The translations under genes were made by a program, and so were the position numbers. A DNA stretch of 10,134 nt, taken from UHGV virus genome UHGV-1424210. The stretch is one strand, 5' to 3'. This DNA comes from a virus. Position 1 is the first letter of the stretch, and each line of letters opens with the position of its first letter. The notes below the pieces were generated by a model that did not search any database, was not told the origin of the DNA, and saw nothing but the letters and a program-made list of their open reading frames with translations. Below are positions 1 through 10,134 of the stretch, piece after piece.

Positions 1-96
1 AGATTCGCGCCATGTGCTTTTGCCCTTGAGCAATTCCTTAAAGAGTACAGGGAAACGCGCCCATTGCAGGTATGGCAACGAACTGAACCAGACTGA
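1..96 (+). CDS. Possible 3' end of a gene entering from the left edge (partial, 31 codons, stop TGA 94-96)
   Basis: Frame 1 is open from the window edge to TGA at 94-96 (…RFAPCAFALEQFLKEYRETRPLQVWQRTEPD). A plus-strand intrinsic terminator lies about 65 bp downstream. No recognisable motif. Confidence 0.25.
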   Translation, partial: RFAPCAFALEQFLKEYRETRPLQVWQRTEPD

Positions 97-160
97 TTGC
101 ATTGCCCACCAGCCTGATAGCGGCTATCATCCCCGTGCTTATGTTTAGTGTTTTCCCATT

Positions 161-189
161 GGCGACCGCCCCCGGTCGCCTTTGTTTTA
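161..189 (+). terminator. Rho-independent terminator, plus-strand orientation
   Basis: Perfect 8-bp GC-rich stem GGCGACCG (161-168) / CGGTCGCC (173-180) with loop CCCC, followed by TTTGTTTTA (181-189). On the minus strand the hairpin is not followed by a U-tract. Confidence 0.5.
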
Positions 190-207
190 TGTGTCATATG
201 CTCCCCT

Positions 208-417
208 TTACACTGCCTTACCTGAATTAATGCGATCCCGGCTTTTAACCCATTCCATAACCTCGGACAGCAGCCACCCTACAGAACGACCGCCCAGATT
301 AAGACGTGACGGAAAGCTCCCTTTTTTCTCCAGTTCGTAGCGTGTAGTGCGACACACTCCAGTTAACTTACGACATTCATCCTCACGGATTACGCGATCT
401 TCATTTATTTCACGCAT
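208..417 (-). CDS. alpA: AlpA-family (prophage CP4-57 regulatory protein / excisionase-like) helix-turn-helix regulator, about 69 aa
   Basis: Translation MREINEDRVIREDECRKLTGVCRTTRYELEKKGSFPSRLNLGGRSVGWLLSEVMEWV fits the AlpA/Xis-like HTH pattern. Start set at the ATG at 417-415. The ORF-track start at 504 is a GTG directly abutting AAGAGG, with no usable spacing, and would add 29 non-conserved residues. Confidence 0.75.
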   Translation of the reverse strand: MREINEDRVIREDECRKLTGVCRTTRYELEKKGSFPSRLNLGGRSVGWLLSEVMEWVKSRDRINSGKAV

Positions 418-758
418 ACAAAAACCTACATAAAAATTACGTATATAAACTTTTCTCTTAGCTGTAGATATATGAGATCGGATATTACTTAGATTCTTTT
501 TCACCTCTTAAATTAAAAACACAACCATGCTAAAGGCTTTGTTCGCTAAGGTTCGTAGAAGCTCGTTAGTGTTTAAAATCGTGTCACGAGTTTTTAAGCG
601 ACGCAACAAAAAATGTCGTCATTTGGCATGACACCTTAATTACCTCATTAAAAACAAATAGATAAACCATCAGGTGTTGGAACAATCAAGAAACAGAGAA
701 TAAGAACTCAGAAGAAGACATTTCAATTTTTTTCGATAGTTGACACATATAAAGAGAA

Positions 759-784
759 GATATTTGCAGATATTCCCCGATATT
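759..784. promoter_or_regulatory. Three GATATT hexamers at exact 10-bp phasing (759, 769, 779) in the AT-rich int-alpA spacer
   Basis: gatatttgca gatattcccc gatattctaa; helical phasing suggests a protein-binding array. It lies upstream of alpA and just downstream of the int stop. Confidence 0.35.
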
Positions 785-798
785 CTAAGATCTATTCA

Positions 799-830
799 CG
801 GCTGTAATCTCTTAAAGAAAAAACAGCCGT
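799..830. other. Inverted repeat ACGGCTGT (799-806) / ACAGCCGT (823-830) immediately downstream of the int stop
   Basis: Perfect 8-bp inverted repeat separated by 16 bp of A/T-rich sequence. Not a canonical terminator because no U-tract follows on the minus strand. Confidence 0.3.
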
Positions 831-836
831 AATTTG

Positions 837-2075
837 TCAAGAATTTTGGGGGTAAATTCGCGGGGTCATAACAACGATTTTTTCATCATTGTTCTGGAGA
901 AGCTCGAGACGGTCTACCCATAGATTAAGAGCATCACGTTTTGCATCAAGGTAGCGGGAGTGGTTATAGACTCGTTGCATCCCTGGCATCTGGTGGGCTG
1001 TAAGCTGCTCGACAATATGCGGATCCACGCCTAAATCGTTCAGCATGGTTGTAAATGTGTGCCGGATATCGTGTAACGTCCAGGGGGCTTGATTAATTCG
1101 TCTGTGCGCTGTTCTTCCGTACTCTGCTACCGAAGATTGTCCTTTCAGTTCACCAAGCAATAAGCCTGTGTGTCTGTTCTGCTCCACCAGTTGCGTGACG
1201 AACGGCAAAATGCTTTCCGGTATTGGCCTGAATATGGCGACCTTCGTTTTGCTGTGCTCCTTCGGTACTGTCCAGAGCATTTCTTTAAAATCCCACTCCT
1301 GCACCTCAGAGCGCCTTAGCTCAGTGGTACGGCATCCAAAAACAATCAGGAGGCGAATTAGGGCGCTGTAGTATGGCGGGAATATTTTGTCATCCAGGGC
1401 GCGGAGTAATTCCCCAAGCTCCTTATTTGTTAGTACGCGCTCGCTCACTTCTGCTTTTTTTCCCACATCACCGACAACCATATCATCAAGAACGTTGCTG
1501 ATTGCGTATCGTCGTTTTCGGCAGTACTTAAGCGCCTGTTTGCATACCTGTAGCAAAAATCCGGCAGATACAGGGCTTCGCTTTGCCATCTGGTCAAAAC
1601 ATGCCAACCAGTGCCGTAGCTCGCATTTTTCCAACGGCAAAGCGCCAATCTGGCTGATTATGTGTTTATTGATCCGGCTTTTCAGTGATTCGTAGTCAGT
1701 GCGCTTTTCCTTTGCATACGATTCAAGCCAGTAAGTGAGCGCTTCCTTAACTGTCACGGGGGCTAACGCATCCTGTACAGCACGATTAAGCTCATAGCGC
1801 GGATTTTTCCCCTCAGCCAGCCAGGCGCGACACTGTGCTGCTTTTTCCCTGGCTGCTTTCAGGCTCAGATCGGGATAATTGCCCAGTCTCAGACGTTCCG
1901 GTGATACCTGCCTACCAGTTCCGGCCCTGTAAGTGAAATACCAGGTTAACAGGCCGCTGGTGGAATGTCTTACGCTAAGATTGCCACCGTCATTAAAAAA
2001 GGCGTTTTTTGTGGTTGGTGATCCGCTTAATTTTCGTAAAAGAGTGTCGCTAAGTCTATGAATTGCGCTGCTCAT
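837..2075 (-). CDS. int: Site-specific tyrosine recombinase (P4-type integrase), 412 aa
   Basis: Full-length ORF starting with ATG at 2075-2073. C-terminal catalytic-domain signatures: conserved Arg in LIVFGCRTTELRR, His-x-x-Arg box WTLHDIRHTFTT, and a C-terminal Tyr region QRVYNHSRYLD. Overall resemblance to P4/CP4-57-type integrases. Confidence 0.9.
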   Translation of the reverse strand: MSSAIHRLSDTLLRKLSGSPTTKNAFFNDGGNLSVRHSTSGLLTWYFTYRAGTGRQVSPERLRLGNYPDLSLKAAREKAAQCRAWLAEGKNPRYELNRAVQDALAPVTVKEALTYWLESYAKEKRTDYESLKSRINKHIISQIGALPLEKCELRHWLACFDQMAKRSPVSAGFLLQVCKQALKYCRKRRYAISNVLDDMVVGDVGKKAEVSERVLTNKELGELLRALDDKIFPPYYSALIRLLIVFGCRTTELRRSEVQEWDFKEMLWTVPKEHSKTKVAIFRPIPESILPFVTQLVEQNRHTGLLLGELKGQSSVAEYGRTAHRRINQAPWTLHDIRHTFTTMLNDLGVDPHIVEQLTAHQMPGMQRVYNHSRYLDAKRDALNLWVDRLELLQNNDEKIVVMTPRIYPQNS

Positions 2076-2098
2076 GTTTAGCGTTTCCGGTCATCAAA

Positions 2099-2355
2099 AT
2101 TAACTACACCATTGACTACACCGTGCATCGTACAAGGGCAAACCGTGACGAACAAGAGCGAACAAGGAAAACAAAATTTTCCTTTATAATCATAGCGATG
2201 AATGCACACAAAACACTACCACGAACACCCGCGAACACTAGATGATAAATAACTATCATTTATATCATTTAGTTAATTAGTCTTTATTTTTCATTATGTT
2301 GCAAATAACAAGCCCGTCAAAAACAGTGATATTAACTACACCATTAACTACACCG
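2099..2355. repeat. Pair of 25-bp direct repeats, ATTAACTACACCATT(G/A)ACTACACCG, at 2099-2123 and 2331-2355
   Basis: The two copies differ at one position and are 232 bp apart. Each is itself a tandem duplication of ATT(A/G)ACTACACC. They flank the putative int promoter. Confidence 0.7.
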
Positions 2356-2386
2356 CTTCACGAACAATATCGAACAACCGCGAACA
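2149..2386. repeat. Seven CGAACA hexamers in helically phased (10-bp) groups upstream of int
   Basis: CGAACA at 2149 and 2159; at 2222 and 2232; and at 2361, 2371 and 2381, with exact 10-bp spacing within each group. Candidate integrase arm-type or AlpA/RDF binding sites. Confidence 0.6.
2293..2320 (-). promoter_or_regulatory. Candidate sigma70 promoter directed toward int
   Basis: On the minus strand: -35 TTGACG (reverse complement of 2315-2320), 16-bp spacer, -10 CATAAT (reverse complement of 2293-2298). Predicted leader of about 210 nt to the int ATG at 2075. Lies between the repeat groups. Confidence 0.35.
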
Positions 2387-2642
2387 AAGATCAACACGCT
2401 TTAATCATTATCATTTTCCGGCTATCCGTCATGAAGCTGGTGGATGATCTGCGTGGTGATTTCCACCATTCAGAGCAGGGGCGGTCATCATGACCATGCC
2501 ATAACAAAAACCCCATATTCGTGGTTTTTCTGTGTCGGGGCTATTCTGCTGTTGCCGTGCTGGTGGATATTCTCCGGTATGCGGCTCCCCATATCGGCAT
2601 CAGGCCCACCAGCGTGAAGCGTTTTTCATTTTTCGCGGGTAT

Positions 2643-2702
2643 AAAAAATCGATGGGGCGGGCAGTCCTGAAGACGTCAGGGTACAGAGATTTGACCCGCC
2701 CC
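2643..2702 (-). terminator. Intrinsic terminator (minus strand): compound GC stem followed by U6
   Basis: GGGGCGGG (2654-2661) pairs with CCCGCCCC (2695-2702), enclosing an inner hairpin CCTGA-agacg-TCAGG (2666-2680). On the minus-strand RNA this is followed by AUCGAUUUUUUAU (plus-strand A-run 2643-2648). Confidence 0.5.
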
Positions 2703-2716
2703 TCCCTGTGCATGAG

Positions 2717-2752
2717 CACAATAAGTAACCGAAGGCGGAATTCCGCCCTCGG
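2717..2752 (-). terminator. Intrinsic terminator (minus strand): 10-bp stem around GGCGGAATTCCGCC plus U-rich tail
   Basis: Minus-strand RNA CCGAGGGCGG-AAUU-CCGCCUUCGG (one G-U pair) followed by UUACUUAUUGUG. First terminator reached after the packaging operon. Confidence 0.5.
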
Positions 2753-2784
2753 TACTTACATATGAGAAACGATATTTCTTCCAC

Positions 2785-2925
2785 CGATACCCTTTATTTG
2801 GGTATCGCGAGTAAGCCCCAAAATCTGGGTGTTACTCTTACTACCCAAACTACGGGTAGTTTCCGTAGTTTCATGGTCGAGTTGCAAATCTGCAACTCAC
2901 CCACCAGCCAACGCAATTTTGCGTT
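2785..2925. other. Cluster of four hairpins / inverted repeats in the untranslated region downstream of the packaging genes
   Basis: H1 CGATACCC-tttattt-GGGTATCG (2785-2807); H2 alternative stems ACTACCC/GGGTAGT (2840-2860) or AAACTACGG/CCGTAGTTT (2847-2871); H3 GAGTTGC-aaatct-GCAACTC (2879-2898); H4 AACGCA-attt-TGCGTT (2910-2925). Confidence 0.45.
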
Positions 2926-2943
2926 ATCGGGAATATCAGCAAG

Positions 2944-3324
2944 TTACCGCCGCAGTCGTTCCGGCTTCTTCCACTGGTAAGTACTTTTCGCGCTCTCCCT
3001 CCGTTGTTGAGAACGGCGACGGTATGCCAGCAACTCAAGGACTCTGGTTCGTATGTTGCGCATATCCACGCCGTTAAGCTCAATACCATCACGGCGCATC
3101 ACCTCAGCAACAACACGCGCGTAATTTTCGGCTATCACGCTGTCCGGCTGCGTGGCCTCCTGTTCGCCAGCCTGCTGGCTGATTCCGGTAATACTGCGGA
3201 TTATCCCGAGCGCTTCGGTCTCGGTCATGGTCATGGTCATGGCCTCCATAGTGATGGCGGGTCCTCCTTGTGGGGTGCCCTGCCACGGGGCGGGAGCATC
3301 GCGGAAAAAGGCTAGTTTTTGCAT
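2944..3324 (-). CDS. Hypothetical protein downstream of terS (126 aa from ATG 3324; more likely about 101 aa from ATG 3249)
   Basis: Same strand as the operon. A strong SD, AAGGAGGA, lies 13 nt upstream of the internal ATG at 3249; the ATG at 3324 has no SD. Contains an in-frame (ATGACC)3 repeat encoding MTMTMT. No recognisable family. Confidence 0.45.
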   Translation of the reverse strand: MQKLAFFRDAPAPWQGTPQGGPAITMEAMTMTMTETEALGIIRSITGISQQAGEQEATQPDSVIAENYARVVAEVMRRDGIELNGVDMRNIRTRVLELLAYRRRSQQRRESAKSTYQWKKPERLRR

Positions 3325-3485
3325 TTTTATTCGTCATCACCACCAATGCAATATATTGATATGACTTGATGTTTTATTTTTCGGTGTCGATTTCGATTGT
3401 TTTTTGTTCATCACTGACGCATAACGCCCACCAGCGCAACGCTGAAAGCCAGTCAGTAAACTGGCTTCGGTCATTGTGCACTACG

Positions 3486-4028
3486 TTACTTGTCTTTATC
3501 CGGCTGAAACTTATCAGGCACATTTCCGGTAGTTTCCATCAGATAATCGGACAGCATTCGCGGGATGTTTTCATCAAGTTTTGTGCATGCGTTACAGGCT
3601 CTGACAACTTCTTTTTTCAGGCCATCCAGCATGACGGGGGTCATCTGTGGGAAGCTCCTTTGCATAGTAAGCGGGAGGCTGTCCATGATTGATGAAATCT
3701 GACTCGCCAGTTTTGAAAGCGCGTACATGCAAAACTCTGTATCAATCACGTCACCGCGATCGCGCTCGTTTTTAAGTTCCTGCGCCTCCGCCTGTGCTGT
3801 CAGTAATCTGATCCTGACTCGTAAGAGTTCATCATCATCAATCTCGCCTTTGTCGTTTGTAAGCTGGCTAATTGCATTGTTAACCCTATTGTCTATCACG
3901 CTGGCAACATCATAAAACGCCTCACGGCCTTTACGTTCAACGGGAGTCACTCCCCACTTGTCGAATGCTGTAGCACTTACCCGGCAGCTTTGCGCCATGG
4001 TTTTTTTGTTCATCAGGTGCGATTTCAT
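3486..4028 (-). CDS. Terminase small subunit, lambda Nu1-like
   Basis: Full-length collinear similarity to lambda Nu1 as recalled: RLLTAQAEAQELKNERDRGDVIDTEFCMYALSKLASQISSIMDSLPLTMQRSFP… versus lambda RLTRAQADAQELKNARDSAEVVETAFCTFVLSRIAGEIASILDGLPLSVQRRFP…; C-terminus ENIPRMLSDYLMETTG versus ELIPGLLSEYIEQSG. The ORF-track start at 4031 is TTG; ATG candidates are 4028 and 4013 (MNKK…, matching lambda MEVNKK…). Confidence 0.85.
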   Translation of the reverse strand: MKSHLMNKKTMAQSCRVSATAFDKWGVTPVERKGREAFYDVASVIDNRVNNAISQLTNDKGEIDDDELLRVRIRLLTAQAEAQELKNERDRGDVIDTEFCMYALSKLASQISSIMDSLPLTMQRSFPQMTPVMLDGLKKEVVRACNACTKLDENIPRMLSDYLMETTGNVPDKFQPDKDK

Positions 4029-4129
4029 CAATATCCCAACTTGGTCAAGGTTTCAGGTTGGTGTGTTGGTGTTATCTTTCCCTTTTTATTCATGGAGATA
4101 GAGCAAACAACAAAACCACCACCACCACC

Positions 4130-4215
4130 CTGAAAAAGCTCATAAATAGCGAAAAACCGCAAGGTCGCCGCCCCGTAGCCTACCGGATCGCCGGAAAGGA
4201 CCCGCCAGCCAGAAC
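4130..4215 (-). other. Lambda-type cos site (cosQ/cosN-like); cosN cohesive-end sequence at 4162-4173
   Basis: Minus strand reads GGGCGGCGACCT at 4173-4162, identical to the lambda 12-nt cohesive end as recalled. Both flanks also resemble lambda: CGGGTCCTTTCCGGCGATCCGGTAGGCTACG upstream and TGCGGTTTTTCGCTATTTATGA downstream. About 135 bp upstream of the terS start, as in lambda. Confidence 0.8.
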
Positions 4216-4229
4216 GGGACCTAATTTCA

Positions 4230-4613
4230 TCAACCAATCAACTTATAGCGACCATCCCGTGCATTGCGACGTACACGCTCAATCTTGAGGCATAGCGCCG
4301 CATCTGGCTTTTTTGGGACAGGTACGCGGCAATATTCAGAAGCTCGAGGAATATTGTTTATCCAGTCGATCACTTCACTTAAATACCAGGCCTTACGCCC
4401 TTCCGTAACCTGTACGCGCTCGGGGAACTCTCCGCGAGCCTCAAGGTTTAGCAATGTGCGACGGCTAAGGGTAGTAAGTTCCATCACCTGATTCATATCA
4501 ACAAGGCGTTCACTTAAACGCATTTTGTCAGCAATAGCCTTTAATTCCTCTACTGCTGGATCCGGATACATCATTTCGGCAATTGGCTTAAGGTCATTGT
4601 AATGATTCTGCAT
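4230..4613 (-). CDS. AlpA-family HTH protein with an approximately 45-aa N-terminal extension (127 aa)
   Basis: C-terminal part VMELTTLSRRTLLNLEARGEFPERVQVTEGRKAWYLSEVIDWI matches the AlpA/excisionase-like HTH pattern. ATG at 4613 is preceded by SD AAGGGGGA at 5-nt spacing. Sits between the D-like gene and cos. Confidence 0.75.
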   Translation of the reverse strand: MQNHYNDLKPIAEMMYPDPAVEELKAIADKMRLSERLVDMNQVMELTTLSRRTLLNLEARGEFPERVQVTEGRKAWYLSEVIDWINNIPRASEYCRVPVPKKPDAALCLKIERVRRNARDGRYKLIG

Positions 4614-4624
4614 TGTATCCCCCT

Positions 4625-4966
4625 TTACACACGAGCCAGCGGCTGAACAGAAATACCTGAGCCAACAAACGCGGCAACCTTTGCCGACAGTTCTTTTACA
4701 GACTCAGGCCAGTTCAGAGCATCAACATTTAAAACACCTGTCTTATAAACCTGTGCCTGTGTTTTTTTCGCTGTGTCGATTTGTACAGCGGAAACATAAA
4801 CCGCTTTGCCTGCGCTCGTTCCATCCCATACCACTAGCGCACCAGTTGCATCTTCCTGCATCAGTGGCGTAAACGCAGGTATTACCCCTTTATTGGCTGA
4901 AAATATCCCCAGCGTAGTAACCAGTGCTTCAGTGCCAGACATGAGTTCAGTGTAATGAGTAGCCAT
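4625..4966 (-). CDS. Head decoration protein, lambda gpD-like (113 aa)
   Basis: Similar length to lambda D (110 aa), with shared motifs THY, TPLM, WDGT, KTG, WPE and a C-terminal AF-G-x-IS. SD AAGGGGGAG upstream of the ATG at 4966. Starts 10 bp after the capsid gene stop. Confidence 0.8.
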   Translation of the reverse strand: MATHYTELMSGTEALVTTLGIFSANKGVIPAFTPLMQEDATGALVVWDGTSAGKAVYVSAVQIDTAKKTQAQVYKTGVLNVDALNWPESVKELSAKVAAFVGSGISVQPLARV

Positions 4967-4975
4967 TGCTCCCCC

Positions 4976-6022
4976 TTAGCCAATGCGAACGGTAACAAAA
5001 CGATTGATGCGGGCCGGTATTGGCTGTGGTGCTGAATGTGTCTGCACATATTCAATAGCCGGATCACCAGGCACAATATAGTTTTTCGGTGCAAGTTCGG
5101 CTTTAGTCAGCCCCATCCGGATTAGCTCCGGATCCTGAATACCGCCATAAGCGACAATCCCCTGAAGAGCCGTATTGCCAAGCACCATCAAATCAGGATC
5201 AAGGAAATATTTTTCAGTTCCGTCCTCGTCGGTATAACGCCCGCTGTAAACAACAATCGCAACATCGCCCATATACCCTTTAAAACTCACCGAATCACCA
5301 AGGTCTTTAAGGGCCGTTTCCAGTTCGGAATTAGAACCACGACGAGTATCCAGAGCCTCTTTTATCGCCCTGAATGAACGGTATTTCTTCCATACATTAC
5401 CGCCCATAATGATAATATTAGTGACGCCCTCACTAAATTCTGCGTAGCTCTCAATATCATCATTTGGATCAAAAGCTTCTTTATCCTTACCTGACCACTC
5501 AGCACCGCCAGACTGAGTGATGATATTTTGTGGTTTAATATTCCAGTCCAGCTCATAACGTTCAATACCATCGCCCTCAATGATATTTTTCCCCGTTGTG
5601 ATTGCCTGAACGGCAAGCCATTCAATACGTGCACGAATAGCTTTAGCCTGATTTACAATCGCCTGTTTAACTTTAATATTACGCGCTCCAAAAGCATTGT
5701 ATTGCTCAGGTGATACACCAGCAGGGCGCACAGCTAACTTATTTGGATCAATGCTGCTTTTCGGTTTCATATAGCCAGGGCGAATTGTTTTTGATTCGTA
5801 TCCCTCATCTCGTGAAACTTTACTGCCCACCATAGGAGAGCAAAACGCCGCGATCGGGATATTTGGATCGTCGATCGTATCAAGAATAATGTCTCTCGAT
5901 TCAAACATTACCGAGCGAGTGAAAAACAAACTGGTAAACAACGCATTTAATTTTTTTTGCACATCTTCAGCATTAGCCACCTGCACAAGCTGTGTAGGCG
6001 AATATAAGTCAACCATACTCAT
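4976..6022 (-). CDS. Major capsid protein, lambda gpE-like (about 348 aa)
   Basis: Collinear similarity to lambda gpE as recalled, e.g. NIITQSGGAEWSGKDKEAFDPNDDIESYA and ALDTRRGSNSELETALKDLGDSVSFKGYMGDVAIVVYSGRY versus lambda NITQSGGTEWSKRDKSTYDPTDDIEAYA and KLDTRRGSNSELETAVKDLGKAVSYKGMYGDVAIVVYSGQY. Start set by homology at MSMVDLY (ATG 6022); the alternative ATG at 6016 has better SD spacing. The ORF-track start at 6103 is TTG. Confidence 0.9.
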   Translation of the reverse strand: MSMVDLYSPTQLVQVANAEDVQKKLNALFTSLFFTRSVMFESRDIILDTIDDPNIPIAAFCSPMVGSKVSRDEGYESKTIRPGYMKPKSSIDPNKLAVRPAGVSPEQYNAFGARNIKVKQAIVNQAKAIRARIEWLAVQAITTGKNIIEGDGIERYELDWNIKPQNIITQSGGAEWSGKDKEAFDPNDDIESYAEFSEGVTNIIIMGGNVWKKYRSFRAIKEALDTRRGSNSELETALKDLGDSVSFKGYMGDVAIVVYSGRYTDEDGTEKYFLDPDLMVLGNTALQGIVAYGGIQDPELIRMGLTKAELAPKNYIVPGDPAIEYVQTHSAPQPIPARINRFVTVRIG

Positions 6023-6187
6023 CCTCTTTACATTCATTACAAATAATTGTGAATATATTCTATTACCGATGTCTGCTATGCGAATACATGCAACCAAGTG
6101 CAATGTTGTATAAAATATGCTGTGACAACTTCAGTGCTGATAATTCGTGTTAATGTATTTACTTCCTTTGGTCGGGATTTATGTAGC

Positions 6188-6216
6188 ATGCCGGAAAATC
6201 TATTTTTTTCCGGCAT
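6188..6216. other. 11-bp-stem hairpin between the SSB-like and capsid genes (terminator-like)
   Basis: ATGCCGGAAAA (6188-6198) / TTTTCCGGCAT (6206-6216) with a 7-nt loop. A T-rich tract follows on the plus strand only, so its role in the minus-strand operon is uncertain. Confidence 0.35.
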
Positions 6217-6233
6217 CTTTTTGTTTGCAGAAT

Positions 6234-6656
6234 TTAAAACGGTATATTATCGCCGTACGGATCATCATTCCCCGACTGTTGTTTTGCCCTGTTCAGTGCG
6301 TCAGTGGCCTGCCCCTGCTGGCCTTTTTTGCCGCCCGGTCGCGCTGTTCGCGCACTGATCACGCTGTCTGCGATAACCTGCCAGCCCTGCCGCGTTTCGC
6401 CGTTCTGGCCTGTCCACTGGCTTACCTGCATGTTACCCGCCACGCTCACCAGTTCGCCTTTGTGGTGTTTTGCCAGTGCGTCGGCCTGTCTGCCAAACGC
6501 CAGGACGGATAACCACATCATCGCCGTTCCGTCATCTGCCTGGCTGCACGGAAGGGGGACCGCCATACTAGCCATCGCCATTTGTGTACCCTTGCTGGTG
6601 GTCTTTAACTGCGGGTCAGCCACCAGCCGTCCGTAAGCCGCTATCTGTGCTGTCAT
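6234..6656 (-). CDS. Single-stranded DNA-binding protein (SSB)-like, 140 aa
   Basis: OB-fold-like core WLSVLAFGRQADALAKHHKGELVSVAGNMQVSQWTGQNGETRQGWQVIADSV resembles E. coli SSB [51 protein letters not shown]. Gly/Gln-rich linker and acidic C-terminal tip DDPYGDNIPF (compare SSB DFDDDIPF). SD GGAGAG upstream; the start ATG overlaps the upstream stop (ATGA). Confidence 0.65.
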   Translation of the reverse strand: MTAQIAAYGRLVADPQLKTTSKGTQMAMASMAVPLPCSQADDGTAMMWLSVLAFGRQADALAKHHKGELVSVAGNMQVSQWTGQNGETRQGWQVIADSVISARTARPGGKKGQQGQATDALNRAKQQSGNDDPYGDNIPF

Positions 6657-6895
6657 GCTGTCTGCTCTCCGGTTTTAACGTTGATGGTTGTCACCTGTTC
6701 CGCTTCGGCAATCTCCCGTTCTGTCAGCGTGGCAAAGTTTGCAGCTGCCGTTGTCATGAATGCGCTAATCAGTTCGGGATGTGCTTTCGCATATCCTTCC
6801 CCGGCGTTGCGGTCGATGATTTTTATCGCCACTCTCAGCCAGTGCTCTGTAAGGTCAATAGCGCGGTAGTGTGGTTGTTTGCGGTTTTCCTTCAT
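6653..6895 (-). CDS. Hypothetical protein, 80 aa, translationally coupled to the SSB-like gene
   Basis: ATG-initiated ORF whose stop overlaps the SSB-like start (ATGA). First gene after the iteron region. No recognisable motif. Confidence 0.5.
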   Translation of the reverse strand: MKENRKQPHYRAIDLTEHWLRVAIKIIDRNAGEGYAKAHPELISAFMTTAAANFATLTEREIAEAEQVTTINVKTGEQTA

Positions 6896-6935
6896 AGTTC
6901 AGATCTCAATTTTTCGTATATATATACAAAACAGT

Positions 6936-7250
6936 GCGGGTTATGCGGGTTAGCGGGTTATCTTCGCTTGCTAAGTATTTTTTATTCCTTAATATCAATA
7001 CATTACAAAATTAACTGTTTACTGTTTAGCCGTGGCGTAACCCGCAAAATGCTCAAAATAACCCGCAAACGGGGTTTTTTCTGCGGGTTACGCGTGGCTG
7101 TTTGCTGTCACTTCCTGTTATTCATCTGCGGGTTATAATCGCACTTTTGCGGGTTATAACTGCCGTTTTGCGGGTTACGTGCGGGTTATTGATTTCCTTT
7201 TTATTCATGCAGTTAATGCACTTATACACAGAGTAACCCACATAACCCGC
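6936..7250. repeat. Iteron array (9-bp GCGGGTTAY) flanking an AT-rich stretch: candidate replication origin
   Basis: Direct copies at 6936-6944, 6945-6953, 6954-6962, 7083-7091, 7128-7136, 7149-7157, 7170-7178 and 7181-7189. Inverted copies (TAACCCGC) at 7036-7044, 7058-7066 and 7242-7250, plus a degenerate one near 7233-7240. AT-rich region 6962-7030. Immediately downstream of the Rep stop at 7274. Confidence 0.7.
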
Positions 7251-7273
7251 AACTTTTCACCTCACACAGGGGG

Positions 7274-9397
7274 TTAATCTTCTGCCTCAGGCTGGAACAT
7301 CAGCACGTAAAAAACATGCTGCTTCCCCCCAATTTTGCCGAGAGCCTTTTTCTTGTAACGGCGATCGTTACCCGCTTCCAGCATTCCGGCAGCACTCAAC
7401 GCGCGGGCAAAGTGGGACGGGTTAAATCCCTGTGCGATCTCCCCCTCAAACACATGAGGAAACGTGTAAAAACGGAACTCATCATCTTCATTTCTGATAC
7501 TCCCCTTTCTGTATCCGGCAAGGTCTTTAATCGGTAAATCACGTTCATCACTGTTTGGGTAAGGAAGGTATCGACTGAACCCGAACGACGACAAAAACGC
7601 CTCAGCCTGTTCAACCATCTGTTTAAATTCCCTGTTACCCGTGCCGAACTCCTTCACCCAGGCATTAAAGTTATGCTGTATTGCGTCCCGGCATTCCTGC
7701 GCGGCCCAGCCAGTTACATGACCGGAAAGCACAAGCGCGGCCTCCAGTATGGCGAAACGCTCACCCACGCGGTGGACTTGCTCGCCGTAGCTCTCCGGTA
7801 TCAGGTTGCGCCACCGTTCGCGGCATTCCCTTACCGTATCCTTTGCCTCCTGCTGGTGGCCTGCCAGCCATTTAACCCACTCACGACCCGCTGCCCCGTG
7901 ATTTTCTGTCCAGGCATCCTTTAACGCGTCTGCGTGCGCCTTTCCGGTGCTGTATTCGTGAAAGTGCGTGGCTTTTTCCATCGGAACGTTAAGCAGGCGG
8001 ACAAGCTGCCCCGCTTTGACTTTTATCCCCTCCGTTTTGAGGAATGTCTCAACGTCCATTTCTCCGGTGCTGATTGCCACCGTGCGCCAGTGTTTTATCT
8101 CCCGGTTGCCGCCGTCCTTCGCCCCCTGTAATTTCCCGGAACCGTTAAACAACGTATAGGCTGACGTGGACACCTCCCGCGCGTTTCCGGCCTGGCCTAT
8201 TTCATCCAGGGGTAACAGCCCGTCGTTGTGCGCCTCTGCCTCGTTAGCGATACCTAACGCTGTGCCGTACCAGGTCAGCCGTTGTGCGTCCGGCTCTCCC
8301 CATAAACTTGATGCGATGTTCTGCGTGGTGGTTTTCCCTGCCGATGACTGTTCGAAAAGATGTACCCCGAAGCCGTCAGCACCAACAAGGCCAATCAAAG
8401 GTGCTGCCAGTGACGTGGCAACACCCAGCATCATGGACGGATTGCCACCAGCCAGCCGCGCCACGCAGTCGCGCCAGCCCTCCGACGTACCCGCAACCGA
8501 ATAGCCATTAACAGTGGCACTTTTTCCGGTAAACAGGATCGGTTTTTCAGAATCACCAATGATTGAGCCGTCCGGCATGATATACGCGCCAAAATGCCAG
8601 CCCGTTGTTGTGCTTAGCTGCCATTCCTCATGGCTTCCGCTTAACTGCATCCAGTCAGCCAGGATAGCCCTGTATTTGCCGTTTGTTGTCACGTTCAGCC
8701 CGTGATCTTTAAGCAACCGCCAGCCGTCACGGTCGCCAATGCCACCACACGGGATCGCCATTGTGATGACTTCATGGTTTGCTAATTTTTTCCAGCGCAT
8801 CACGCGGTAATGCTCTTTACCGATCGTCCCCGTTCCCAGTAGTTCAAGCGGAGAACATAACCACGTCTCAGGCCGGATAATTTCGCCTGACTGCTTATCC
8901 ACTTTGGGCGTTACCCAGAAAACACCATCGACGCGACTTTCAACGCGGGGCTTTAATTCATCATCCTGATAGCATGGCTCTTTTTTCTTTACAGGCAGTT
9001 CAACTACCTTTTTCTTTTCCGCCTGCTCTGCCCGTTCACGTTCCAGATATTCGCGCCAGTTCTCCCGTTTCTGGCTGTGCATTCCTTCAGGGTAATAATC
9101 AGCATCCCTGACACCTGCCGCTGCCAGTTTCTGCCCGATGGTATTAACAAGCCCCGGACGCAATAACCCCGCCTGGTAGAGACGCACGCGATAGCGTCCG
9201 TCCGGTACGATTTGCAGGTTGTCCAGTTCGGCAAGTTGTTGCTCTCCAAGCCAGACAGGTGGCACGTTATCGCCAGCCAGTCGCCCGTCCTGTTCCTGCC
9301 ACTGCTTCGCATGTGCCCACGCATCACTACCCGCAAAAATGATGACTTCCGTCATTTTGTCACGCGGCTGGTGTTTTAAATTTGGCGCTTTTTTCAT
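7274..9397 (-). CDS. Replication initiator (primase/helicase-like ATPase; resembles DUF927-type proteins of CP4-57/PICI-like islands), about 707 aa
   Basis: Long ORF with P-loop-like motif FEQSSAGKTT and Walker-B-like LLPLDEIG. Adjacent iteron origin. Start set at ATG 9397 (SD GGAGAGAG, ATGA overlap with the upstream ORF stop); the ORF-track start at 9412 is GTG. Family assignment is from memory, not from a search. Confidence 0.8.
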   Translation of the reverse strand: MKKAPNLKHQPRDKMTEVIIFAGSDAWAHAKQWQEQDGRLAGDNVPPVWLGEQQLAELDNLQIVPDGRYRVRLYQAGLLRPGLVNTIGQKLAAAGVRDADYYPEGMHSQKRENWREYLERERAEQAEKKKVVELPVKKKEPCYQDDELKPRVESRVDGVFWVTPKVDKQSGEIIRPETWLCSPLELLGTGTIGKEHYRVMRWKKLANHEVITMAIPCGGIGDRDGWRLLKDHGLNVTTNGKYRAILADWMQLSGSHEEWQLSTTTGWHFGAYIMPDGSIIGDSEKPILFTGKSATVNGYSVAGTSEGWRDCVARLAGGNPSMMLGVATSLAAPLIGLVGADGFGVHLFEQSSAGKTTTQNIASSLWGEPDAQRLTWYGTALGIANEAEAHNDGLLPLDEIGQAGNAREVSTSAYTLFNGSGKLQGAKDGGNREIKHWRTVAISTGEMDVETFLKTEGIKVKAGQLVRLLNVPMEKATHFHEYSTGKAHADALKDAWTENHGAAGREWVKWLAGHQQEAKDTVRECRERWRNLIPESYGEQVHRVGERFAILEAALVLSGHVTGWAAQECRDAIQHNFNAWVKEFGTGNREFKQMVEQAEAFLSSFGFSRYLPYPNSDERDLPIKDLAGYRKGSIRNEDDEFRFYTFPHVFEGEIAQGFNPSHFARALSAAGMLEAGNDRRYKKKALGKIGGKQHVFYVLMFQPEAED

Positions 9398-9693
9398 TTC
9401 TGCTCTCTCCACGCGGCAATCATGTTTTTCAGTTCCTGTAGTTTTTTATCCACATCCACACGTGACACATGGTTATTTCTGGAAGTCGGGATTTCCCGCC
9501 GGAATCTGCAAATAAAGATCTCCACGTTCAGCGAACTAAGAAATGAATAGCCATCACGGATAAAATACACACGGTCAAACATCAGTTCTTTTACCGTTAC
9601 TCTGTTACCGTTCTTATCCAGATAAATAGCGCCGGGGATAATTTGGGGGTGTGCATAACCGCTGGCAGTCAAGCCAGATAAATACGTTCTCAT
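9394..9693 (-). CDS. Hypothetical protein, 99 aa, translationally coupled to rep
   Basis: ATG at 9693 with an upstream GGGGAT; stop overlaps the rep ATG. No recognisable motif. Confidence 0.55.
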   Translation of the reverse strand: MRTYLSGLTASGYAHPQIIPGAIYLDKNGNRVTVKELMFDRVYFIRDGYSFLSSLNVEIFICRFRREIPTSRNNHVSRVDVDKKLQELKNMIAAWREQK

Positions 9694-9699
9694 GATTAT

Positions 9700-10020
9700 T
9701 TATCCCCGATTTGAATCAGTATTCGCTTTCTTTATAGCATTTAATGCATCTGTGGCATTTTCAATGGTGCACCGTAACGAAATATCAAAATGTCCAAGCA
9801 TTGCCAGTAACAAACCGATATTACCCATATCAATGCGCATGGCCTTTTCGTCATAGTCCTCATTTTCTGACGCATGCCACATCAGGCTACCAATTGACGC
9901 AACAGCCATTGATATATTGTCAGTAGCCCCATCCGCAGCGGAATAAACCTTTTTAGCAATATCATGCTCACAGTTAAAATGCGGATTAATCAGGTACTGG
10001 TAATTTGACATATCAGGCAT
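9700..10020 (-). CDS. Hypothetical protein, 106 aa
   Basis: ATG-initiated ORF. Its start overlaps the stop of the upstream partial ORF by 8 nt. Six bp separate its stop from the next start. Confidence 0.55.
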   Translation of the reverse strand: MPDMSNYQYLINPHFNCEHDIAKKVYSAADGATDNISMAVASIGSLMWHASENEDYDEKAMRIDMGNIGLLLAMLGHFDISLRCTIENATDALNAIKKANTDSNRG

Positions 10021-10134
10021 GGCACACCCCCTGACGAATACGGGCAGCGAATACCATCACGCAGCCAGCCGGGGATTGCAGGCGTGCTTCCTGTTCGCTG
10101 GTGGCCTCAATGGTAATCACGCGCGGTTGTGCCG
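10013..10134 (-). CDS. Partial CDS (C-terminal 39 codons) entering from the right edge
   Basis: Open minus-strand frame from the window edge to TGA at 10015-10013 (…VITIEATSEQEARLQSPAGCVMVFAARIRQGVCHA), overlapping the next gene start; indicates an operon of at least four genes. Confidence 0.4.
   Translation of the reverse strand, partial: AQPRVITIEATSEQEARLQSPAGCVMVFAARIRQGVCHA

Follow-up and report, generated by a model that had tools for sequence, protein, structure and literature searches.

The window, a 10,134-nt stretch presented as one strand of the virus genome UHGV-1424210, is very probably a circularly permuted map of one phage-inducible chromosomal island (PICI) of the E. coli cspD-clpS site, a phage satellite that is already known. 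Window positions 1-2263 align with the integrase end of the integrated element (L001 20484-22746) and positions 2242-10134 with its terminase end (L001 12001-19887), each at 99.87% identity, and the two mapped pieces overlap by 22 bp. The element is 10,724 bp long in E. coli C 237-04, where it is present in one copy between clpS and yljB/cspD. In the integrated copy L001, 596 bp that are absent from the window lie between the two window ends, and other genomes suggest that positions 1 and 10134 would be linked across this missing segment.

Gene order of the element and the left edge of the window

The chromosomal order is yljB/cspD, attR, int, alpA, icd-like, primase, ori, ssb, capsid, decoration, HTH, cos, terS, orf, attL, clpS. 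When the window is un-permuted against L001, int becomes the first gene, adjoining yljB/cspD, and alpA and the other genes, with the exception of ylcI, lie on the int strand. int-alpA appears "downstream" of terS-orf because the element ends are fused in the window at an attP-type site; since the window is permuted relative to the integrated copy, int-alpA is the normal first module of the element. The odd placement of int-alpA is thus ordinary, previously described biology, and the genes themselves are real. A sequence-only reading had offered, as one option, that the window spans a junction at which int-alpA starts a second island. The junction is there and int-alpA does start an island, as its first module, but this is not a second, different island: both sides of the junction come from the same element, and 15 E. 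coli genomes each have it in a single copy. The comparison with element-free genomes which that reading had proposed found the empty site contiguous in 5058 of 5426 E. coli genomes.

The int and alpA genes share their strand with the capsid, decoration and terS genes, as had been noted from the sequence. int (837-2075, minus strand) encodes a tyrosine integrase of 412 aa, and alpA (208-504, minus strand) is an ORF for an AlpA-family helix-turn-helix regulator, for which the RefSeq start, an ATG at 417, gives 69 aa. The packaging-operon terminator expected upstream of int-alpA corresponds to a terminator-like hairpin (2753..2728, minus strand) located 3' of the last packaging-operon gene, at the end of a hairpin array (2700..2945, minus strand). 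On the other side of alpA, the anticipated plus-strand terminator is present as a terminator-like hairpin, GGCGACCG-CCCC-CGGTCGCC, with a stem at 161-180 and a T-run after it (161..190 in all). This hairpin probably ends a plus-strand ylcI/ynfO transcript ahead of alpA; ylcI/ynfO lies inside the 596 bp of the element missing from the window. Genes, strands and terminators of the earlier layout were therefore borne out, but its convergent partial ORF, placed 13 bp beyond the alpA stop, was not. No plus-strand ORF ends there, and the three plus-strand frames near the alpA stop have their stops at 96, 148 and earlier. At 195-197 the boundary corresponds to the ATG (197-195) of a minus-strand ORF, 10 nt past the alpA stop, so this ORF is co-directional with alpA. 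It is the 5' part of an Icd-like ORF (1..197, minus strand), which RefSeq labels an Icd-like pseudogene and whose coding status is doubtful.

The other option offered placed the end of the element near 190-207, which would leave int-alpA right at the edge. The plus-strand terminator at 161-180 and the gene boundary close to the alpA stop are what such an end might look like; however, all the integrated copies examined have Icd-like, ylcI, DUF4222 and primase genes after alpA, and the chromosomal junction is on the other side of int, adjoining yljB/cspD. Window positions 1-207 are contiguous with the Icd-like/ylcI element genes, which join the other window end, so that the sequence to the left of alpA simply runs on within the element. 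We consider an end at 190-207 refuted. A repeat shared by the two window ends, which could have broken an assembly, was also sought, and the two Icd-like regions show no similarity.

The remaining genes can be followed from the junction toward the right end of the window, all on the minus strand. The last gene of the element, an orf, is at 2944..3324 (2944-3228 in RefSeq), followed by terS (3486..4031), which encodes a Nu1-like small terminase subunit. Upstream of terS is a cos site (4135..4205) whose cosN (4173..4162) is an exact match to that of lambda, GGGCGGCGACCT; a cosQ-like sequence lies 5' of it. Beyond it are a second AlpA-family helix-turn-helix gene (4230-4613), a lambda D-like head decoration gene (4625-4966) and a lambda E-like major capsid gene (4976-6103). 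The replication module (6234..10020) is composed of SSB (6234-6656), an iteron-rich origin-like region with 11 exact or near-exact TGCGGGTTA iterons (6935-7251), a DUF927 primase of 712 aa (7274-9412), a DUF4222 gene (9394-9693) and a small ORF (9700-10020). An Rfam search of the window at E<=0.1 gave no match, including to C4/CI-type antisense RNA.

The attP-type junction

The overlap of the two mapped pieces is the att core, ATGATAAATAACTATCATTTAT (2242-2263, no strand assigned), which has the inverted repeat ATGATA/TATCAT inside it. Two core positions, 7 and 19, are polymorphic. attB, taken from Nissle 1917, has G7/C19, attL has G7/T19 (4 loci), attR has A7/C19 (12 loci) and the window has A7/T19. 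Across 19 core occurrences, the window included, these two positions segregate as expected for attB, attL, attR and attP, and the A7/T19 combination, set against the attL and attR patterns, identifies the window core as an attP-type junction. With the two natural polymorphisms as limits, the crossover is confined to the 11-bp block ATAACTATCAT (2249-2259); attL and attR have only 11 identical bases in common. PMC6092414 (Table S1) gives ATGATAGTTAT as the att of EcCIIHE3034 and EcCI18098, both at cspD-clpS, and this published att is the reverse complement of window 2249-2259. Looking for tRNA or tmRNA genes had also been proposed; a scan found none in the window, which places the att site outside tRNA genes.

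Candidate arm repeats flank the core on both sides, all on the plus strand and of two kinds, ACTACACC and CGAACA. The P arm (2099..2237) has two copies of ATTRACTACACC (2099-2122) and two pairs of CGAACA repeats with 10-bp spacing (2149-2164 and 2222-2237); the P' arm (2331..2386) has two copies of ATTAACTACACC (2331-2354) and three CGAACA repeats, again with 10-bp spacing (2361-2386). The arm repeats are found only in the att region, and none of 200 shuffles reached the same count. CGAACA hexamers are concentrated there, with 7 of the 12 in the window falling within 240 bp, on one strand and in 10-bp phase. The integrase has an N-terminal arm-binding domain (Pfam Arm-DNA-bind_3) and a Pfam Phage_integrase match, and its catalytic residues are all in place (R249, H335-x-x-R338, H361 and Y370). 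Repeats on both sides of the core together with this domain are predicted to make the site an arm-type attP. The att region yielded no match to the IHF consensus.

The att region had been drawn at 2076-2940. Only about 2099-2386 is att-like; the hairpin array at 2700-2945 lies outside att, belongs to the packaging operon and is kept in PICIs at other att sites. In the P' arm, a sigma-70-like site (2320..2293, minus strand) could possibly read through the core into int in the joined form only, and in the integrated form it might instead read toward clpS. The promoter scan gave 5 matches against 5.2 expected, which is chance level, and so the idea of a P'-arm promoter amounts to one consensus match.

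Physical form of the sequenced molecule

The sequenced molecule is likely to have been an excised circle or a concatemer. The window sequence would be the same whether the source was an excised circle, a concatemer or an array in tandem on the chromosome. Of 5426 complete E. coli genomes, none has the junction (window 2050-2450) contiguous, and about 370-400 of them have an element at the cspD-clpS site. The junction is present in a closed circular RefSeq record of 10,790 bp, pZ1323HEC0475-3 (NZ_CP148328.1), which represents a sibling element deposited as a plasmid. This record has the same integrase, alpA and P-core-P' junction and is contiguous with window 1-2435 at 96.9% identity; unlike the window, it has another morphogenesis module, with a ClpP-capsid fusion protein. 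The same P-core-P' junction was found in one IMG/VR contig (L002).

Two head-to-tail copies at cspD-clpS, with the window lying across their internal junction, are an unlikely source, although a second copy entering attL or attR can be reasoned to give exactly the A7/T19 junction. On this reading int-alpA would be the beginning of another, identical copy. L002 has the layout of a clpS flank, attL, the whole element and an attP-type junction, which suits a tandem array and a mixture of integrated and excised forms alike. The absence of a contiguous junction from the complete genomes, some of which carry an element at this site, argues against an array, as does the window itself, which has neither a chromosomal flank nor a duplicated segment.

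A false join of prophage ends through the common att core during assembly is very improbable. A chimeric join via the shared block would also give A7/T19, but attL and attR are identical over only 11 bases. Assembler k-mers are normally longer than this, which disfavors an artefact. In addition, the same junction appears independently in the closed circular record and in the IMG/VR contig, and excision and circularisation have been documented by experiment for the PICI family. An excised circle or concatemer thus remains the preferred source. We give little credence to the further idea that the window and the 10.79-kb "plasmid" record reflect an EcCI-type PICI maintained outside the chromosome or in tandem, and not transient excision; the original description of PICIs has them without a plasmid state.

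In public assemblies the attP junction is rare. Neither the strict nor the relaxed attP junction pattern matched in the JGI metagenomes or the GTDB species-representative genomes. An attR pattern used as a positive control in IMG/VR gave 0 matches, and therefore no ratio of integrated to excised forms is drawn from IMG/VR. The first 50 bases of the window occur in 68 IMG/VR contigs and at a contig end in none of them, and the whole window was found in no phage or plasmid record searched. The exact-protein lookup for Int returned only integrated contexts among the matches listed, because this lookup reads the longest contigs first.

These observations can be arranged into a proposed sequence of events. 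As read from the window, Int would bind the arm repeats and inverted core sites and exchange strands inside the 11-bp block, and excision would join attL and attR into attP. By analogy with published work on the family, a helper phage would then turn on alpA, AlpA would activate the rightward operon, and the primase and origin would turn the circle into concatemers by replication. Cutting at cos (4162-4173) would fall to the helper's terminase acting with the Nu1-like TerS of the island. Again as read from the window, in the circle, the concatemer and cos-to-cos virion DNA attP-int-alpA comes after terS, as it does in the window.

The genes of a satellite seem out of order when its joined form is sequenced, which may lead an annotator to read it as two islands or as an element boundary. 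Once the attP core is recognised, the usual map with int first is recovered, and the main value of the analysis is for annotation. The added details are the narrowing of the crossover, by two polymorphisms, to an 11-bp block previously published as att, and the mapping of the phased arm repeats of this integrase.

Family membership and comparison with known systems

After un-permuting, the element has int at its left end, then alpA, with transcription in one direction; the unidirectional, rightward transcription of Gram-negative PICIs has been described previously (Fillol-Salom et al. 2018, PMC6092414). Its chromosomal att site at cspD-clpS contains the published att block, and a DUF927 primase followed by iterons suggests that it has its own primase and a putative origin. 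At 10,724 bp it falls within the size range of PICIs (~10-15 kb), with an incomplete set of phage structural and lysis genes: the genes annotated by RefSeq and Pfam include capsid, decoration and TerS, with portal, TerL, tail and lysis genes all absent. Having a cos site and TerS would fit induction, replication and high-frequency packaging that depend on a helper phage. The element is already known and leaves the current understanding of PICIs unchanged, and very few public sequences besides the window have the joined form of the cspD-clpS PICI type.

The closest named relatives are EcCIIHE3034 and EcCI18098, both TerS-encoding E. coli PICIs. They share the insertion site, att block and gene order and are of similar size (10.5-10.8 kb), but the window holds the joined (attP) form and not the integrated form. 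Identity between EcCIIHE3034 and the window is 99.8% for Int, 98% for AlpA, 89% for SSB and 87% for TerS. The modules are nevertheless mosaic: identity falls to ~54-55% for the capsid and decoration proteins, and the EcCIIHE3034 primase resembles the window's 712-aa DUF927 primase only over the first ~120 residues. When mitomycin C was used to induce their resident prophages, the IHE3034 and 18098 islands were not detectably transferred (PMC6092414).

EcCICFT073, the prototype Gram-negative PICI, shares the gene order, which runs int, alpA, icd-like, DUF4222, primase, ssb, capsid (c1499), decoration (c1500), and has a lambda-type cosN. Its spontaneous excision and circularisation, with closed circles and concatemers, have been documented experimentally (PMC6092414). 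It differs from the window element in its att site (ycfD-phoQ), in having another integrase and in having no TerS, and protein identity ranges from 33 to 90%.

P4 is similar in its P4-type integrase, AlpA/Vis-like regulator, large primase and Icd-like region, and the integrase, AlpA-type regulator and primase of PICIs and P4 are distant homologues (PMC6092414). In contrast to P4, the capsid, decoration and TerS of the window element are lambda-type and the genome structure differs. Sid, Psu and Delta were absent from the Pfam matches and RefSeq product names, a scan that covered all but three small ORFs, and the lack of functions of these types among them tells against a P4-like satellite. A capsid-forming PICI (cf-PICI) was also considered and rejected, as only major capsid, decoration and TerS homologues are present, with no portal, protease, TerL or connectors.

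Phage lambda differs in scale and regulation, the window element being a 10.7-kb satellite without portal, TerL, tail or lysis genes and having AlpA as its regulator and not Xis or CI. The likeness to attP-int-xis of lambda is in the core lying between arm-type sites, in an Int with an arm-binding domain and in a Nu1-like TerS adjoining cosN. Under the Campbell model, circular permutation relates the lambda prophage map to the vegetative map, which runs from cos to cos. The attP-int-alpA order proposed for the excised and packaged forms of the island would parallel this vegetative map, permuted with respect to the prophage map.

A circularly permuted element at the cspD-clpS site

Among 5426 complete E. 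coli genomes searched with the window, 15 have one place that covers at least 80% of it, and there the alignment is always split into two or more pieces. The copy in E. coli C 237-04 shows the arrangement: window 1-2263 corresponds to positions 20484-22746 of the locus holding the integrated, single-copy element (L001) and window 2242-10134 to positions 12001-19887, both at 99.87% identity. On the chromosome the element is flanked by clpS and yljB/cspD; the integrase adjoins yljB, and a homologue of the window's 126-aa ORF adjoins clpS. The window ends are separated by 596 bp in this copy, which measures 10,724 bp with the core counted once. These alignments indicate that the window is one element, circularly permuted. 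The sequence-only reading had proposed that int-alpA might start a second island, which is wrong: both parts of the window match one element. All ten chromosomal contexts of the exact integrase protein (10/10) have int at the cspD edge with alpA after it, and int-alpA is thus the element's normal start rather than an unusual position. An element boundary at 190-207 is likewise contradicted, as int sits at the cspD edge and an Icd-like ORF and ylcI/ynfO lie beyond alpA.

The two aligned pieces overlap by 22 bp, ATGATAAATAACTATCATTTAT (2242-2263), a core that contains the inverted repeat ATGATA/TATCAT. Comparison with genomes lacking the element, as the sequence-only reading had advised, found the empty site contiguous in 5058/5426 genomes and supplied attB, taken from Nissle 1917. 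Core positions 7 and 19 differ among four kinds of site: G and C in attB, G and T in attL on the clpS side (4 loci), A and C in attR on the cspD side (12 loci), and A and T in the window, an IMG/VR contig (L002) and a circular record (L073). The A7/T19 junction therefore reads as attP-type, in the reciprocal pattern expected for site-specific recombination, and places the crossover within the 11-bp block ATAACTATCAT (2249-2259). The 24-aa gene yljB shares its last codons and stop with the core (L003 396-417; L001 22725-22813), and it is still intact in attR after integration. A tRNA/tmRNA scan, also advised, found no such gene in the window, and Rfam comparison of the window gave 0 matches.

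Repeats that are absent elsewhere in the window flank the core on both sides. Two copies of ATTRACTACACC lie at 2099-2122 and two more at 2331-2354 (4 matches vs 0.07 expected), and CGAACA units spaced by 10 bp lie at 2149/2159, 2222/2232 and 2361/2371/2381, a paired pattern with 4 matches vs 0 in 200 shuffles. The att region holds 7 of the window's 12 CGAACA hexamers, on one strand only. These arm repeats and the Int domain Arm-DNA-bind_3 together give a lambda/P4-type attP anatomy, and the repeats are candidate sites for Int, AlpA or a host factor; a search of the att region for the IHF consensus found none. A junction with an att region had been placed within 2076-2940. The junction stands, with att features limited to about 2099-2386, whereas 2700-2945 consists of packaging-operon hairpins. 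The P' arm also contains a sigma-70-like site (2293-2320, minus strand; TTGACG, 16 nt, CATAAT) that reads through the core toward int when joined and toward clpS when integrated; it was a lone consensus match from a scan whose hits were at chance level, and the sibling element L073 does not conserve it.

Physical form of the sequenced molecule

The junction (2050-2450) was contiguous in 0/5426 complete genomes, although some 370-400 of them do have an element at the cspD-clpS site. A sibling phage-inducible chromosomal island (PICI) has a RefSeq entry as a closed circular 'plasmid' of 10,790 bp (L073) and carries the same P-core-P' junction as the window, P and P' being the arms on either side of the attP core. 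Its alignment with window 1-2435 is contiguous, and its element had no near-complete chromosomal copy from that strain among the best 40 matches. Experimental documentation of PICI circles exists (PMC6092414), and these data favour an excised circle or concatemer as the likely sequenced form. A tandem array is also compatible: contig L002 runs from the clpS flank through attL and the element to an attP-type junction, and a mixture of forms fits this layout too. An assembler artefact is unlikely to have made the junction because the stretch identical between attL and attR is only 11 bases and independent records contain the junction, which is otherwise seldom seen in public data. The whole L073 record, NZ_CP148328.1, has the integrase and attP as in the window element; its deposition as a 'plasmid' contrasts with PMC6092414, according to which PICIs have no plasmid state.

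Gene order, packaging region and element ends

Every substantial ORF of the window is on the minus strand. In transcription order these are a small ORF (10020-9700), a small DUF4222 ORF (9693-9394), a DUF927 primase of 712 aa (9412-7274), an 80-aa ORF, SSB (6656-6234), a lambda E-like major capsid protein (6103-4976), a lambda D-like decoration protein (4966-4625), an AlpA-family helix-turn-helix protein (4613-4230), the Nu1-like small terminase gene terS (4031-3486) and the 126-aa ORF (3324-2944). After a gap of 868 bp come the tyrosine integrase with its arm-binding domain (2075-837), an AT-rich gap of 330-420 bp and alpA (504/417-208). The earlier observation that int-alpA share the strand of the packaging genes and lie beyond their terminator was largely correct, with terminator-like hairpins at 2753..2728 (minus strand, 3' of the 126-aa ORF) and at 161-180 (plus strand). 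In a circle, a concatemer or cos-to-cos virion DNA, cos is followed by terS, orf, attP, int and alpA, and the map then runs on to cos again; the window has this order, in which int-alpA appears downstream of the packaging genes. The vegetative and prophage maps of phage lambda are related likewise.

The cos site (4135-4205, minus strand) has an exact lambda cosN, GGGCGGCGACCT, at 4173..4162, about 130 bp upstream of terS, and a cosQ-like sequence precedes the cosN. The N-terminal region of the Nu1-like terS is only loosely lambda-like, which, beside an exact cosN, suggests that the island has its own cosB recognition. Just 3' of the primase gene, 11 exact or near-exact copies of TGCGGGTTA in both orientations (6935-7251) adjoin an AT-rich palindrome (6907-6936), and together these are probably a replication origin.

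On the minus strand, 2700-2945 folds into six or seven near-perfect hairpins in a row, with the terminator at the end (minimum free energy -109.7 kcal/mol, z-score -9.4), two of them with compensatory changes. This array had no Rfam match, is present in 1171 E. coli genomes, and lies at the right-hand end of PICIs whose integrases differ and that are inserted elsewhere (downstream of fis, at a tRNA-Ile gene or within a prophage terminase gene), so it belongs to the packaging operon and not to att. One related right end (NZ_CP032811.1 1892079-1895318) adjoins a truncated prophage terminase gpA gene and resembles the helper-embedded PICIs that PMC10111431 describes.

Left of alpA, an ATG at 197-195 begins a minus-strand ORF, which explains the boundary near 195 and is an Icd-like pseudogene in the RefSeq annotation of an almost identical genome. 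The convergent partial ORF previously proposed beyond the alpA stop was not found, as no plus-strand frame of the window is open up to about 195. The 596 bp absent from the window comprise, as seen in L001, the end of the Icd-like gene and a plus-strand ylcI/ynfO gene, which the terminator at 161-180 probably serves. This gene and terminator are antisense to the Icd-like ORF behind alpA (window 1-197, L001 20169-20680), an ORF that ranges from 110 to 348 codons among relatives and is of odd composition; the region may be a regulatory antisense RNA, not coding sequence.

Relation to known PICIs

Published work already covers the element, its att site and its circular form, and the value of the result is annotation. 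In Gram-negative PICIs transcription is unidirectional and rightward, maps are drawn with int at the left end, and a helper phage switches on the activator AlpA (PMC6092414). The prototype EcCICFT073, which spontaneously excises and circularises to form closed circles and concatemers (PMC6092414), has the gene order of the window element but another att site; the window cos site resembles the published cos sites of EcCICFT073 and phi80. EcCIIHE3034 (10.5 kb) and EcCI18098 (10.8 kb) share the cspD-clpS site and the att sequence ATGATAGTTAT in a published list (Fillol-Salom et al. 2018, PMC6092414, Table S1); this sequence is the reverse complement of the window crossover block. Protein identity to EcCIIHE3034 is 99.8% for Int, 98% for AlpA, 87% for TerS, 89% for SSB and about 54-55% for the capsid and decoration proteins, whereas the primase is of another type, which makes the window element a mosaic sibling of EcCIIHE3034.
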